From an uncultured Alphaproteobacteria bacterium (GTDB lineage: Bacteria; Pseudomonadota; Alphaproteobacteria; RF32; CAG-239): a stretch of 64,000 bases of DNA. The stretch is from assembly GCA_944390355.1 (NCBI GenBank), contig CALXPT010000001.1, positions 175,507-239,506 of the forward strand, written 5' to 3'. The position numbers and the translations under genes were made by a program. Shown piece after piece: positions 3,851 to 61,961 of the stretch. The notes under the pieces are model-generated. The model did no database searches. It saw only the letters and a list, made by a program, of their open reading frames with translations, and was not told where the DNA came from. Each line of letters starts with the position of its first letter. Positions within the stretch are counted from its first letter, which is position 1.

Positions 3851-3982
3851 ATTCTAAACTCCGTTGTCATCATAAAAGATGCGAAGTTATTTCTCAAGTA
3901 AAATTTATAAACTTCACATATGGAAAACTTTTTTTTTGCAAAATACTTTGCCCAAACCCGCGGAAAACCTCGAAAATTTCTA

Positions 3983-4011
3983 TTGAAAGGATTTTTTTCT
4001 TGTGGTATAAT
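3983..4011 (+). promoter_or_regulatory. Sigma70-type promoter with extended -10 (TTGAAA-17nt-TGgTATAAT) for the Cys-rich secreted protein operon
   Basis: Near-consensus -35/-10 with 17-nt spacer and TGn. Identical architecture upstream of the paralog at 60782-60810 (minus). Confidence 0.55.
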
Positions 4012-4058
4012 ACGAGTCGTGGAGACAAATGTAATTAGAACTTTTTACGAGGTGTATT

Positions 4059-4940
4059 ATGATGAAAAAGGGTTGCCTTTTGCTGTGTGCTACAGCATTA
4101 AGCTTGGCTTGTTTGGATAATCAAGTTCAGGCATCAATTAATTTTAATCTAAAAGCACCTCCCGTTCCGAGCTATGCTAAATTACACACATCGCATACTT
4201 CACACCTCATAGCTCGACATTTGTCTCCCGAGAGTTTTAGGGAGAGACAAGAAATCAAGGTTGCGCAGGTTTGTTGGATTTTGGATACCGAAGACTGCGG
4301 CGGGGCGGACTTTGTCGGCACGGATTTGGAAGGCGGCACGCCGGAAGTTATTCCCCCAGGGGGAGGTGGCGGTGATAACAGTTGTATTGAAATGGGTTTT
4401 ACCAAAACCTCATGTCCGAGCGGTTATAAGCCTAATAAATATTGTCCTCTGAATAATACCTATTTTGCCGAATGTATTCTGGACTGCCCGAGTAATTACG
4501 TAACTTGTGAAGCACCGTTAAAAGGTGTCGGTACGGTCTGCGGCAATGGGTTATACAAAGACTGTTGTACGCCGACGTGTCCGGCGGAATACAAGTACAC
4601 ATTGGGTTCTATTCCCGATGGTTATGAAGCGGACGGCGAACCATGTGTAGAATGCGACGAAGGCGGATTGAAAATCAAGGAAAAATACAAAATCAAAGAG
4701 AAAGACTGTTCGGGATATTTGGATTGCGGCGACATGGGCTGTGCGGATGGCGCAACCGCTTGTCAAAGCGGCAATACAACCCTGTGTTCGGATTGCAAAA
4801 AATGCCCAAACCTCGGCACGGAGAGCGAATGTCCGCCGTGTTCGGTCTGCACGTTTGAAGAATGCTCGAATTTATATGTTGTAACCGGCTGTAAGTCTGG
4901 TTGCACCGACTGGTGCGACTATTGCGCTTTTGAACAATAA
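4059..4940 (+). CDS. Secreted cysteine-rich protein (signal peptide; about 40 Cys in C-terminal 200 aa), paralog of 59878-60741
   Basis: 293-aa ORF with signal peptide MMKKGCLLLCATALSLA. C-terminal about 200 aa nearly identical to the minus-strand paralog. RBS GAGG. Confidence 0.7.
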   Translation: MMKKGCLLLCATALSLACLDNQVQASINFNLKAPPVPSYAKLHTSHTSHLIARHLSPESFRERQEIKVAQVCWILDTEDCGGADFVGTDLEGGTPEVIPPGGGGGDNSCIEMGFTKTSCPSGYKPNKYCPLNNTYFAECILDCPSNYVTCEAPLKGVGTVCGNGLYKDCCTPTCPAEYKYTLGSIPDGYEADGEPCVECDEGGLKIKEKYKIKEKDCSGYLDCGDMGCADGATACQSGNTTLCSDCKKCPNLGTESECPPCSVCTFEECSNLYVVTGCKSGCTDWCDYCAFEQ

Positions 4941-4968
4941 TCTGAAATTATTATCAAGGAGATGTGTT

Positions 4969-5727
4969 ATGAGAAAGATTTTATTAATGAGTTCGGCTTT
5001 GGTGGTGAGTGGTTTGTTGAGCGGTGTGGCTGATGCGGCCTGTATTCAAACCCCGACCTGTTCATCTTTGGGATATACCTCGAGTTCATCTTGCACCGGT
5101 GGAACGAAATGCCCGTTCGGCAATGCTTGGAACTGCACTGGACCGAATAATACAACCGAAATTAAAAATATTAAAAATGAAATTACTAATATCAAAAATA
5201 GAATTACTAAATTGGAGAATAACTCGGGTTCCGGTTCAGGGACTGGCTCTGGGTCAGGAACTGGCGGGTATAGCCAAGCCTGCAGTGGATGTCAGGTGGG
5301 GGACCTTTACAATGGTTCAAATTGCTATAGTTTTTTATTAATAACTCCGGTTGGAGGATATTTCGTTTATGAAAAGGAAAACGGAAAATGCAAAGCTATG
5401 TCTCTCCAAGAGAGTGAAAGCATGACTGTGGATTATCTAAAAGGTGGTATAGTTGAAACCGATAAGGCAGGGGAAATGATTTGTAGACTCTTCAATATTG
5501 TTAATCCTAACCATATTAATTCAATTTTTAACGTTGAATATCATGACTCATGGAGTGTTCCAAACATTTATGAAGGAAATGACGGAAAGATGCATATATC
5601 AGGTTCTCTTACAGTATATCGGTCTTGTTCTAAGAGTAGTACTAGAATCTTTAGATATGATGGTGATGAAGTTGGAGTGGAGCAATATTTAAGTCAATTT
5701 AGAATGCCTAAAATGATTACTTTTTAA
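4969..5727 (+). CDS. Secreted protein with conserved N-terminal Cys module (AACIQTPxC...KCPFGNAWNCT), coiled-coil heptads and GS-rich linker
   Basis: ORF 4930-5727; likely start at ATG 4969 after AGGAG RBS. Signal peptide. N-terminal module shared with 59054-59836. Confidence 0.6.
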   Translation: MRKILLMSSALVVSGLLSGVADAACIQTPTCSSLGYTSSSSCTGGTKCPFGNAWNCTGPNNTTEIKNIKNEITNIKNRITKLENNSGSGSGTGSGSGTGGYSQACSGCQVGDLYNGSNCYSFLLITPVGGYFVYEKENGKCKAMSLQESESMTVDYLKGGIVETDKAGEMICRLFNIVNPNHINSIFNVEYHDSWSVPNIYEGNDGKMHISGSLTVYRSCSKSSTRIFRYDGDEVGVEQYLSQFRMPKMITF

Positions 5728-5742
5728 TCTTAAATATAACTT

Positions 5743-5778
5743 CAAGCCCGCTCTTTTAAGAGCGGGCTTGGAGGTTTT
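5743..5778. terminator. Bidirectional intrinsic terminator (13-bp stem, T-run) between convergent genes
   Basis: CAAGCCCGCTCTT-TT-AAGAGCGGGCTTG followed by GAGGTTTT. A-run upstream for the opposite strand. Confidence 0.6.
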
Positions 5779-5795
5779 AGTTCATAAAAGGACGT

Positions 5796-58971: not shown

Positions 58972-59003
58972 GTCAAACTGGCTTAAAATAAAGAAAAAAG
59001 AGA

Positions 59004-59036
59004 GTTCGGCAAAATGTAAATTTGCCGAACTTTTTT
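59004..59036. terminator. Bidirectional terminator between secF and convergent DUF1566 gene
   Basis: GTTCGGCAAA-loop-TTTGCCGAAC then TTTTTT. Confidence 0.55.
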
Positions 59037-59053
59037 GTGTTTTGATATATCCC

Positions 59054-59836
59054 CTAAAAAGCTAGGACTGGGCGAACGGAATAGCCTTTATCCTTATCGT
59101 TGTTGTCCATATCAGCATCATAGAAGTACAACATCCAAGCATAGGCATCAGAATACTCGGAAGAAGACCAATGGCTCATTGAATTCAATGCTTCTCCTCC
59201 GATTTTACTCAAGGCTGTGTCCAAACTATTTTGGCTATCATATATAGCCTTCAATTCCCCTGCTGCCGGCAAGTACCAATCTCCGGCTTTGGTTCCTTCC
59301 GTTTGATAGCTGTTTACATATTCAAACGCAGGGCAACTATATCCTTTTGCTTTACAATATTCTGACACAATCTGCGTGTTTTTCTTACCCTGCCAATCTG
59401 CCGTTACGGATGATGTTATATTACTTAATTCCGGAACGTCAAAATATTTGTCTGACCAATATTCTGCTGATGACTCCAACCCTATTGCCAGTCTGTTGGT
59501 TGTATCAAAAATTACACCTATCGGGGTTTTGCTTGCTACAACATTTGCATTGCAGCTCATATCCGAATATAAAATATCTCCGATTTGGCATTTTGAAAGA
59601 GCCTCATCCTGTACGGTTTGTTCCAATTTTTCAATTGTTATTTTGAGTTGGGAAATTTCGTCGGCCAGCGTGCAATTCCAAGCATTTCCGAATGGGCATT
59701 TAATTCCGCCCTCGCAGGCCGTGGTGGAGGTATAGCCCAGTGTGGTACAATTCGGGGTTTGAATGCAAGCAGCCTCAGCCACGCCGCTCATCGCAAAAGC
59801 CACCAAAGCCGATGAATATAATAAAAACTTTCTCAT
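59054..59836 (-). CDS. Secreted protein with N-terminal AACIQTP Cys module and C-terminal DUF1566 (Lcl C-terminal-like) domain
   Basis: 260 aa. Signal peptide. N-terminal module shared with 4969-5727 product. C-terminal GDWYLPAAGEL...SMSHWSSSE...YSVRPVLAF typical of DUF1566. Confidence 0.6.
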   Translation of the reverse strand: MRKFLLYSSALVAFAMSGVAEAACIQTPNCTTLGYTSTTACEGGIKCPFGNAWNCTLADEISQLKITIEKLEQTVQDEALSKCQIGDILYSDMSCNANVVASKTPIGVIFDTTNRLAIGLESSAEYWSDKYFDVPELSNITSSVTADWQGKKNTQIVSEYCKAKGYSCPAFEYVNSYQTEGTKAGDWYLPAAGELKAIYDSQNSLDTALSKIGGEALNSMSHWSSSEYSDAYAWMLYFYDADMDNNDKDKGYSVRPVLAF

Positions 59837-59877
59837 TTTCTTTCTCCCATATAATAGTTTTAGTTCTAAAAAATTGG

Positions 59878-60741
59878 TTATTGTTCAAAAGCGCAATAGT
59901 TGCAGTAATCGGTACATCCGGTTGCACAACCGGTTATGATGTATAAATTTGAGCATTCTTCATAAGTGCAGATCGAACACGGTGGACATTCGCTTTCCGT
60001 GCCTAAGTTCTGGCAGGGTTCGCATTCCGAACACAAGGTTGTATTACCTGTTCGACAAGTCGGTGTGCCTGCTTTGCACCCCATATCGCCGCAGTCCAAA
60101 AATCCCGAACAGTCTTTCTCTTTGATTTTGTATTTTTCCTTGATTTTAAGGCCGCCTTCATCACATTCTTCGCAAGGTTCGCCGTCCGCTTCATAACCGT
60201 CGGGAATGGAACCAAGTGTGTATTTGTATTCTGCCGGACAAGTCGGCGTGCAGCAGTCTTTGTATAAACCATTGCCGCAAACCGTACCGACACCTTTTAA
60301 CGGCGATTGGCAAGTTACATAATTACTCGGACAATCTTGCACACATTCGGCAAAATATTTGTTATCTAACGGGCAGAATTTGTTTGGTTTATACCCTGTC
60401 GGGCATGAGGTTTTGCCATAGCCCATTTCGGTACAGCTTTCTTTATAATCATCACCCCCCGGAGGAAGAATCTCAGGCGGTGTCCCTGTCGTCCCATCGG
60501 TGCCGACAAAGTCTGCCCCGCCGCAGTCATCCGTATCGGTTATCCAGCATACCTGCGCAACCTTAATCTCCGACTGCCCTCTAAAACTTGGAGGAGATAA
60601 ATAATCTTCAGAAAAGAGGTGTGTGTGAAGTGTGTGAACAAATGTAATTTTTTCTGAAGGAAGGGAAATACCGGCTCTCACATCCGGCGCAAAAATCGCC
60701 GCCGAAGATAACAGCCCAAACAACAAATAAACCTTGTTCAT
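59878..60741 (-). CDS. Secreted cysteine-rich protein, paralog of 4059-4940
   Basis: Start at MNKVYLL (ATG ending 60741, RBS AAAGGA). ORF-track extension to 60810 runs through the promoter. Confidence 0.7.
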   Translation of the reverse strand: MNKVYLLFGLLSSAAIFAPDVRAGISLPSEKITFVHTLHTHLFSEDYLSPPSFRGQSEIKVAQVCWITDTDDCGGADFVGTDGTTGTPPEILPPGGDDYKESCTEMGYGKTSCPTGYKPNKFCPLDNKYFAECVQDCPSNYVTCQSPLKGVGTVCGNGLYKDCCTPTCPAEYKYTLGSIPDGYEADGEPCEECDEGGLKIKEKYKIKEKDCSGFLDCGDMGCKAGTPTCRTGNTTLCSECEPCQNLGTESECPPCSICTYEECSNLYIITGCATGCTDYCNYCAFEQ

Positions 60742-60781
60742 GATAAAAGTCCTTTCGATATTACTTATCTCCACGACTCGT

Positions 60782-60810
60782 ATTATACCACAAAAGAAAA
60801 TTTCTTTCAA
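60782..60810 (-). promoter_or_regulatory. Sigma70-type promoter with extended -10 (TTGAAA-17-TGgTATAAT), paralogous copy
   Basis: Reverse complement identical in architecture to 3983-4011. Confidence 0.55.
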
Positions 60811-60986
60811 TAGAAATTTTCAAGGCTGGACAAGGGTTTGCACGAACTCTTTTGCATAAAAAAATCTTTTTTTGGAGCTGATGGTGCTTAACCTATTTCT
60901 GTGTGTGTTTTGATTTGCATGGTTGATTTTTGCGAATTTTGGTTTTATCCTTGTTCTATTATTTTTGATTATTGAAAGAATTGCTT

Positions 60987-61961
60987 ATGAAAAAAATTTC
61001 TCTTATCGGATGCGGGCGTTGGGGAACTTTCTTGGGATACTATGCCGCTAAATACTGCGGATATGATGTTGATATGTATGATATTCCTACCTCCCCTAAC
61101 TTTATTGAACTCAGAGATACCCGTAAAAATTCTTATCTCTCTCTTTTGGATAATATGAAACTCTATGACAATCTTTCCGATGTTCTTAAAAATGATACCG
61201 TGATTATTTCTATCGGCTGTCAATATTTCAGAGGTTTGTGCAAGGAACTTAATCAATATGACCTTAACGGAAAATTCTTCTTGCTTGCAATGAAAGGCTT
61301 GGAGGAAACTTCTGCCAAATATATGCACCAAATTATGAAAGAAGAAATTAAACAAGATATTCATGTCGCGGTTTTGGCCGGCCCTGGGCATGTGCAAGAC
61401 TATATGAAAGGCGTTCCCTCCTGTGTGGTGGTCGACTCCGATGAAGACGCTACAAAAAATTACTTTATCCAAAATCTTTCCAGCGAGCTTATTCGATTCT
61501 ATTACGGTGCAGACCTCATCGGCAACCAAATCGGTGCCGCTCTCAAAAATGTTATCGGTCTTGCCGCCGGAATACTCGACGGACTTGAATGGTATGGGCT
61601 TAAAGGGGCTCTCATGGCACGCGCTCCGATTGAGGTCGGTCGCTTTATCAAGGCTTTTGGCGGCAACCCACAAACGGCTTATGGTTTGGCTCATCTCGGC
61701 GACTACGAAGCTACCCTGTTTTCTCAATATAGTCATAACCGTACATTCGGCGAAAAATTTGCTAAAGGCGAAGATTTCGGAAAACTCGCAGAAGGTGTGC
61801 CTACGCTTAAAGCCGTTAAACTCATTGCCGATGAACGCCACATTGATATGCCGATTTGTCAGGCTCTCTATCAAGTCATTTACGAAAAACAAGACATTAA
61901 GTCTACCATTCGTAATTTGTTTACTCGTCATATTAAACAAGAATTTGAAGATTGGGATTAG
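60987..61961 (+). CDS. gpsA: NAD(P)H-dependent glycerol-3-phosphate dehydrogenase
   Basis: N-terminal Rossmann ISLIGCGRWGT. GpsA-length and C-terminal domain. Alternative TTG start 60972. Confidence 0.85.
   Translation: MKKISLIGCGRWGTFLGYYAAKYCGYDVDMYDIPTSPNFIELRDTRKNSYLSLLDNMKLYDNLSDVLKNDTVIISIGCQYFRGLCKELNQYDLNGKFFLLAMKGLEETSAKYMHQIMKEEIKQDIHVAVLAGPGHVQDYMKGVPSCVVVDSDEDATKNYFIQNLSSELIRFYYGADLIGNQIGAALKNVIGLAAGILDGLEWYGLKGALMARAPIEVGRFIKAFGGNPQTAYGLAHLGDYEATLFSQYSHNRTFGEKFAKGEDFGKLAEGVPTLKAVKLIADERHIDMPICQALYQVIYEKQDIKSTIRNLFTRHIKQEFEDWD

Follow-up and report, generated by a model that had tools for sequence, protein, structure and literature searches.

The window analysed here, a stretch of 64,000 nt from contig CALXPT010000001.1 of an uncultured alphaproteobacterium (assembly GCA_944390355.1), carries two co-oriented gene pairs, one at each end, at 4059-5727 on the forward strand and at 59054-60741 on the reverse strand. 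An earlier note on this DNA had described the two pairs as paralogous modules for secreted, Cys-rich proteins, and the open reading frames (ORFs) and their translations bear out the pairs. In each pair, or cassette, gene 1 (L1 on the left, R1 on the right) encodes a Cys-rich protein, and gene 2 (L2 and R2) encodes a protein in which a short Cys-containing module precedes a C-terminal head. The likeness between the two pairs is far beyond chance, and tblastn finds no further cassette copy within the window. The whole window sequence is also contained, without differences, in BRZ_D NODE_28, a 224.7-kb ENA metagenome contig. The cassettes are members of a large, previously unannotated two-gene family that includes a new Cys-rich partner domain and new families of heads. 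The feature is real and non-trivial, and it is best filed with the variable multigene adhesin families.

In both cassettes, gene 2 starts 28-41 nt beyond the gene-1 stop behind its own Shine-Dalgarno sequence (GGGAG for R2), and the gap between the two genes holds no terminator. The ORF list places the start of L2 at TTG 4930, overlapping the end of gene 1. The real start is most likely ATG 4969, because an AAGGAG Shine-Dalgarno sequence lies 8 nt upstream of it and because this start agrees with all homologues. Coordinates are collected in Table 1.

Table 1. Features of the two cassettes in the window and DsbA-like genes beside cassettes at related loci (the latter in locus coordinates).
Feature	Position	Strand	Details
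Left promoter and leader block	3969-4027	+	-35 TTGAAA 3983-3988; TG-extended -10 TATAAT 4006-4011; leader GAGTCGTGGAGA 4014-4025
Left gene 1 (L1)	4059-4940	+	293 aa; ORF and translation
L1 Cys-rich, beta-rich core	4371-4937	+	residues ~105-293
Left gene 2 (L2)	4969-5727	+	252 aa; starts at ATG 4969
L2 5-Cys module	5038-5139	+	residues 24-57
L2 coiled coil	5152-5223	+	residues 62-85
L2 head, ITF-type	5281-5724	+	residues 105-252
Bidirectional intrinsic terminator	5740-5773		ends left cassette, shared with convergent ettA-like gene; 15-bp stem, 9 GC pairs (terminator scan)
Bidirectional terminator	58998-59036		separates secF from the end of the right cassette
Right gene 2 (R2)	59054-59836	-	260 aa; Lcl_C/DUF1566 head
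R2 Lcl_C match	59066-59395	-	residues 148-257
R2 5-Cys module	59669-59770	-	residues 23-56
Right gene 1 (R1)	59878-60741	-	287 aa, 29 Cys; paralogue of L1
Right promoter and leader block	60766-60824	-	-35 TTGAAA 60810-60805; TG-extended -10 60787-60782; leader motif 60779-60768
DsbA-like gene	L001:2109-2846		Pfam DSBA E = 8e-22
DsbA-like gene	L027:5013-5735		Pfam DSBA E = 1e-19

Gene-1 proteins share one order of parts: a Sec signal peptide cleaved after VQA or VRA, an N-region, a linker rich in Gly, Pro and Asp, and a beta-rich Cys core. The L1 signal peptide, read by eye, covers approximately residues 1-25 with cleavage after VQA. The N-region carries a His-rich TLHTHL-like motif and an invariant KVAQVCWIxDTxDCxGxDF and is poorly predicted, and the AlphaFold2 (AF2) model of L1 reaches a predicted local distance difference test score (pLDDT) of 85-90 at residues 105-248. 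Cys makes up about 13% of the core, with many CxxC and CC motifs. The earlier note had counted about 40 Cys in the last 200 aa of gene 1; the actual number is 27 in L1 and in R1, with 29 in each mature protein. Its description of these C-termini as nearly identical was likewise too strong, the paralogy itself standing: L1 and R1 are 71% identical overall (E = 9e-139) and 80.5% identical across the last 200 aa. They are old paralogues, since their synonymous sites differ at a proportion (pS) of 0.53-0.72, and the ratio of nonsynonymous to synonymous divergence (dN/dS), the comparison that the earlier note had proposed, is 0.13-0.18, with 0.125 for the core, which indicates purifying selection. 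Recent gene conversion between the two window copies is ruled out because the synonymous sites are near saturation.

Gene 1 has no match in Pfam (E <= 1), NCBIfam, PHROG or PADLOC. A Foldseek search of its AF2 model against the PDB returns nothing significant (top match E = 0.43), and the sequence profiles of gene 1 and L2 find no matches in the PDB. The eukaryote-like repeats of EGF or TNFR type suggested earlier are therefore not supported, nor are furin-like ones.

The alignment of L2 with R2 covers just the first ~110-135 aa of each, with 45% identity. This shared part includes the module AACIQTPxCxxLGYTSxxxCxGGxKCPFGNAWNCT, which the earlier note had correctly placed at the start of both proteins. 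The general order in gene 2 is a signal peptide (cleaved after ADA or AEA), the 34-aa module with five invariant Cys, a helix, a linker and the head. In L2 the signal peptide occupies residues 1-23, and the module and coiled coil are followed by a Gly/Ser linker; R2 runs from signal peptide and module through a coiled coil to an Lcl_C head. The short Ile-rich coiled coil had been credited to one protein and is present in both. In the AF2 model of L2, residues 62-85 are helical and the head reaches a pLDDT of about 90. Positions 65, 68, 72, 75, 79 and 82 of the L2 neck are Ile or Leu in an a/d register. Ile at both a and d is said, after the work of Harbury and colleagues in 1993, to favour trimers, and the three-heptad Ile a/d coiled coil of gene 2 probably forms a trimer neck. 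Neither L2 nor R2 contains Gly-X-Y (GXY) repeats. In some gene-2 proteins (L051:7066-7839, L022:6732-7940 and L046:6806-7810), one to several YxYxCTGxGYxGGxGxxCxGKYxxCxCxxGYxW repeats replace the coiled coil, and the L051 protein consists almost wholly of them; module and head can thus be joined by different connectors.

The heads always begin with a Cys hairpin (CxVGDxxY..C) and finish in P-x-x-[ILV]-[ST]-F. The gene-2 C-termini had been called unrelated, with a DUF1566/Lcl-like domain in one; that assignment holds for R2 and the left head is without a match, yet L2 and R2 share the hairpin opening before they diverge. R2 passes the Pfam Lcl_C model (PF07603; E = 1.5e-10, 41.8 bits against a cut-off of 34.9 bits) and, judged by this score, joins the Lcl_C domain family as a new member. 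Weaker matches link R2 to the NCBIfam models of Lcl and of FimD tip adhesins and to PDB entries 4eps and 8q4e. Against the NCBIfam Lcl equivalog NF046116, R2 scores 23.9 bits (cut-off 500 bits) over its C-terminal region only and fails as a full-length member. L2 has no match in Pfam (E <= 1), NCBIfam, PHROG or PADLOC. By profile search its ITF/ISF-type head is found solely behind the same N-terminal module, in 21 proteins, and in no other protein context. At least seven head types exist, and profile comparison interlinks the non-Lcl types with each other but not with Lcl_C.

A constant N-terminus with a swappable C-terminus, and several head families without a known fold, are what a polymorphic secreted effector or toxin aimed at bacteria or host would present, with gene 2 supplying a variable toxic C-terminus and gene 1 acting as chaperone, carrier or receptor-binding partner. 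The earlier note had raised an effector role, and it is improbable. The commonest head is the non-enzymatic, lectin-like Lcl_C; Pfam, NCBIfam and PADLOC reveal no enzymatic, toxin, Rhs, type VI secretion system or contact-dependent inhibition domains; and no immunity gene follows gene 2, the next gene being a convergent housekeeping gene beyond the terminator. No third gene recurs beside the cassettes either: the flanking ORFs of 65 loci cluster only as the cassette and its antisense shadow ORFs, so that no dedicated transporter emerges. A defence system was also considered and dropped, as PADLOC returns no match. CysRRep repeats, described in a 2026 preprint, were set aside in turn because their Cx6-9Cx5-7Cx8-11Cx7-8CC spacing misfits the gene-2 module.

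The R2 C-terminus also matches PHROG 4245 (E = 1e-13), and DUF1566 tips are known on phage proteins diversified by diversity-generating retroelements (DGRs). Both would fit receptor-binding proteins with exchangeable DUF1566 tips, left by a prophage or tailocin or carried as moron genes. Such an origin is barely credible given the rest of the evidence. Gene-1 relatives are absent from 2.9 million IMG/VR viral contigs, gene 1 and L2 lack any PHROG match, and housekeeping genes flank the cassettes at conserved chromosomal sites, with none of phage type in the neighbourhood. A DGR is also rejected for the window, where blastn of both gene-2 3' ends finds no second copy and no template repeat.

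The Cys counts of both proteins follow a pattern. Of 80 distinct canonical gene-1 sequences, 76 have 25, 27 or 29 Cys in the mature protein, and the other four have one extra Cys before the conserved motif. In variants with 27 and 25 Cys, C228 and C243 are gone jointly, and C261 and C282 likewise. Gene-1 Cys are thus lost in pairs, as expected of disulfide partners. The gene-2 module always has five Cys; outside the module, the number is even in 136 of 148 gene-2 proteins. With odd gene-1 counts and a 5-Cys module beside an even remainder, each partner therefore seems to keep one unpaired Cys, and this parity suggests an intermolecular disulfide between the unpaired Cys of gene 1 and gene 2. 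In two related genomes, an exported DsbA-like thioredoxin-fold protein with a CGYC active site is encoded directly upstream of a cassette (Table 1). Its position could reflect plain synteny or a functional link to disulfide-rich products. The disulfide-rich character that the earlier note had thought possible is supported by the odd counts, the pairwise losses and these genes.

The same Cys density, with its many CxxC and CC motifs, might instead belong to periplasmic metal-binding or redox-buffering proteins of a metallothionein-like or zinc-ribbon-like kind, in place of disulfide-bonded extracellular ones. We consider this highly improbable: the Cys count shifts in twos and specific pairs vanish jointly, as disulfides would; signal peptides are present and DsbA occurs in related genomes; and lectin-like heads accompany gene 1 and are in some genomes fused to it.

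The family is sizeable. A gene-1 profile search (library of 1.84 billion proteins, clusters at 50% identity, E <= 1e-3) returns 376 clusters, 84 of them at E <= 1e-30, with lengths up to 1067 aa. The 82 proteins returned by a gene-1 protein search all lack a name, no source names any of seven gene-1 clusters looked up, and ten long family members contain essentially no Pfam domains. Among representative genomes, the family is limited to a few metagenome-assembled genomes (MAGs) of uncultured Alphaproteobacteria/Pseudomonadota. Three related uncultured alphaproteobacterial MAGs hold 26, 24 and 15 cassette loci, and five others hold 1-4; many copies lie at contig ends, where repeats are expected. 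The view of a polymorphic family in the earlier note is supported by these numbers, by the mosaic gene-1 sequences described below and by the variety of heads.

Gene 1 and gene 2 belong together across this family. A strict pattern recognises, at 36 of 77 related loci, a signal-peptide gene 2 with the same module 20-70 nt beyond gene 1, and module variants occur elsewhere. Natural fusions also exist. In five proteins of 577-672 aa (L052 and L056-L059), a complete homologue of gene 1 continues through Cys-rich repeats into a head of gene-2 type. These proteins match R2 in blastp at E = 1e-11 to 1e-23, and P0025, which bears a Pfam PF07603 annotation, is likewise fused. The gene-2 module aligns with gene-1 residues 107-136, the first Cys module of gene 1 (hhalign probability 53%, E = 1.4e-4). 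Two giant relatives, L039:6007-7701 (564 aa, 78 Cys) and L064:5989-7512 (507 aa, 71 Cys), consist of a gene-1 core plus tandem DPCxGVSCPxAKxCxYGCASxSSxTSCCSSVCTSC repeats, with no gene 2 after them.

Both cassettes have the same TTGAAA-17-TGgTATAAT promoter, as the earlier note had stated, at 3983-4011 (+) and 60810-60782 (-). The left copy scores 11/12 plus the TG extension in a promoter scan. Every copy in every genome has a near-consensus -35 element and a TG-extended -10 element, followed directly by the leader motif GA(G/T)TCGTG(G/A)AG (also written GAGTCGTGGAG). Within the window this motif occurs only at the two cassettes. Across 869 kb of window and related loci, all 64 occurrences lie 5' of a gene-1 homologue, and the motif is kept across genomes with only 35-50% protein identity. 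The left and right promoter-leader blocks are identical at 53 of 59 positions despite the synonymous divergence of L1 and R1, and the non-coding block is therefore under strong constraint of its own. The motif could act as an operator or a discriminator, or be the first stretch to be transcribed. A structured or known RNA leader is rejected, with no Rfam match and no conserved RNA fold across 22 leader variants.

Comparison with a related MAG reveals rapid turnover at fixed chromosomal sites. This genome has cassettes at both of the same sites, HAD|cassette|EttA and GpsA|cassette|SecF-SecD. The flanks at the two sites (ettA, secF) retain 90-92% DNA identity, and the EttA protein 98.6%, whereas gene 1 retains merely 49% and 61% protein identity. 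The heads differ too: the left site has an Lcl-type head in place of the ITF-type, and the head at the right site is doubled. A third genome has an empty site. At L030:1260-1400 (compared with window 3851-5795), only 12 nt separate the EttA stop from the start of the haloacid dehalogenase (HAD)-hydrolase gene; in the window, a 1.9-kb cassette on the opposite strand lies between the EttA and HAD genes, and the HAD gene has its own promoter-like site at 3897-3869 (-). No target-site duplications are seen by eye at the cassette borders. At the GpsA side of the right cassette, a 323-aa ORF at 60969-61940 (-) runs antisense to the gpsA-like gene (60972-61961, +) and is almost certainly a shadow ORF.

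The copies are mosaic. Close relatives of L1 are patchworks in which some segments are L-type and others R-type, and among the copies of one MAG the median pairwise identity falls from 81% in the module to 62% in the gene-1 core and 47% in the head (minimum 16%). The closest relative of L1 in the protein search, P0001 (92% identical; L078, ENA ONAT22-1 scaffold_1266), lies in another genomic context, beside a class-I tRNA synthetase and TrkH; how alike two copies are is therefore not tied to where they sit in the chromosome. Compared with the genes around them, the cassettes change far more quickly, which is a signature of molecules at a host, phage or microbe interface.

Dozens of paralogues under the same promoter and leader, a disulfide-dense architecture, and cassettes that diverge and turn mosaic much faster than their flanks would also suit a protease-resistant, antigenically variable surface coat, comparable to the variant-specific surface proteins (VSPs) of Giardia or the variable lipoproteins (Vlp) of Mycoplasma. 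Such a coat would serve protection and evasion of immunity or phage over adhesion, with one or a few copies expressed at once. The T7 run in the left promoter spacer (3989-4005) could be a slippage site of the kind that such switching uses. The right copy reads T4CT4, though, and T6-T7 runs occur in some spacers only, the SN and RF genomes having none in their copies. Nearly every copy keeps a 17-nt spacer (16 nt in L005), and no invertible promoter was found, as the promoters lack flanking inverted repeats. A near-consensus promoter in every copy argues for parallel expression, and dN/dS is low. We regard a coat of this kind as unlikely, albeit the most serious of the alternatives.

The reading we prefer is a disulfide-rich stalk with a collectin/Lcl-like adhesin head, diversified by recombination among copies, to which we would give a probability of roughly one half. 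Each cassette would form an operon complete in itself, transcribed from a strong sigma-70 promoter whose -10 element is TG-extended. Both proteins would be exported through Sec and most likely act as a single extracellular unit. Gene 1 might form a beta-rich, disulfide-cross-linked stalk or base. Gene 2 would be a lollipop, by analogy with Lcl, in which the N-terminal 5-Cys module docks or cross-links, the coiled coil probably serves as a trimer neck, and an exchangeable C-terminal head binds ligand. That head would mostly adopt the C-type-lectin-like Lcl_C/DUF1566 fold and sometimes belong to other, lineage-specific families. The one odd Cys in each partner would supply a disulfide between the gene-1 and gene-2 products. 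With the family expanded to dozens of loci per genome under one promoter and leader, presumably expressed together, paralogue recombination and head swapping at fixed sites might equip the cell with a wide and fast-changing range of adhesins or ligand-binding proteins. The surface role that the earlier note had floated, or an adhesive one, is in keeping with an Lcl_C head.

Several observations pull against the stalk-and-head adhesin. No outer-membrane export route or anchor is identified, and no transporter recurs beside the cassettes. The binding role of the left head is assumed by analogy with Lcl_C; its model has no Foldseek neighbour in the PDB or BFVD, and its candidacy as a diverged Lcl_C domain finds no support, since hhalign of ITF-type against Lcl-type heads gives 14% probability across the first ~40 residues only. 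Many Lcl-type heads of related genomes score below the Pfam threshold. AF2 confidence is low for the gene-1 N-region, the gene-1 C-tail and the gene-2 module, the hhalign likeness between that module and gene 1 is marginal, and Cys parity is mixed in the fused forms.

A bolder form of the adhesin proposal is an undescribed "collectin-like" heteromeric adhesin, with a 14-disulfide stalk covalently joined, through the single odd Cys of each partner, to a trimeric exchangeable-head protein, encoded in dozens of co-regulated, fixed-site cassettes that serve as a combinatorial variation system based on paralogue recombination. It would amount to a new surface-diversification mechanism in uncultured, possibly gut-associated Alphaproteobacteria. 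We put this form forward tentatively and think it rather doubtful as a whole.

The family merits attention on several grounds. Gene 1 defines a sizeable family without a Pfam, NCBIfam or PHROG model, a name or a structural neighbour in the PDB. The 15-26 cassette loci per related genome, under one dedicated promoter and leader, represent a heavy genomic investment. The adhesin proposal makes predictions open to test: a single disulfide between molecules, a trimeric neck and ligands that are specific to the head. The cassettes are also a natural collection of small scaffolds stabilised by disulfides and of new head folds.

Known systems resemble the cassettes in part. The tip adhesins of Bacteroidales type V pili and fimbrial proteins that contain DUF1566 (FimD_tip_adhes, NF052322; PDB 4eps) also present a head as a tip adhesin, and R2 is weakly similar to them across its C-terminal head (NCBIfam E = 7e-4; 4eps_A E = 1e-3). 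These scores are far under the cut-offs, R2 has no pilin domains or lipoprotein signal, and the producers belong to another phylum.

The Vlp proteins of Mycoplasma hyorhinis and the Giardia VSPs are multigene families of variable surface proteins with conserved promoters and 5' ends, and VSPs are very Cys-rich. The cassettes similarly comprise many paralogues with a near-identical promoter and leader and variable or mosaic coding regions, with a Cys content as high as in VSPs. They differ in having two genes per unit and no ON/OFF switch that was found, and their proteins are unrelated in sequence to either family.

Collectins (MBL, SP-A, SP-D) combine an N-terminal Cys-rich cross-linking segment, a coiled-coil neck and a C-type-lectin-like head, and they oligomerise by interchain disulfides from an odd N-terminal set of Cys. 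Gene 2 shares this order of parts with the vertebrate proteins. The likeness is an architectural analogy and a lead only: gene 2 is bacterial, lacks a collagen region and a Pfam Lectin_C match, and is not homologous in sequence to collectins.

Lcl of Legionella pneumophila is secreted by the type II secretion system and attached to the surface as a trimeric lollipop with a stalk, and its C-type-lectin-like DUF1566 head binds glycosaminoglycans (PMC11162425). Gene-2 proteins are likewise predicted to be secreted, with an attachment piece at the N-terminus, a stalk that would oligomerise and an Lcl_C head at the C-terminus. In contrast to Lcl, gene 2 has a three-heptad coiled coil or Cys-rich modules in place of collagen GXY repeats, a 5-Cys module in place of the N-terminal amphipathic helix, and always a Cys-rich partner gene, at many loci in one genome.

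DUF1566 heads on surface proteins are also targets of DGR hypervariation (PMC5758913). DGR-diversified DUF1566/"CLec2" targets such as Legionella LdtA (PMC5758913) belong to the same head fold family and provide a hypervariable surface scaffold for ligand binding. Cassettes would vary instead through paralogous loci, recombination and head swapping, not through a reverse transcriptase and a template repeat. If the adhesin proposal is true, an uncultured lineage gains by paralogue amplification the binding diversity that other bacteria obtain with DGRs acting on the same DUF1566 fold.

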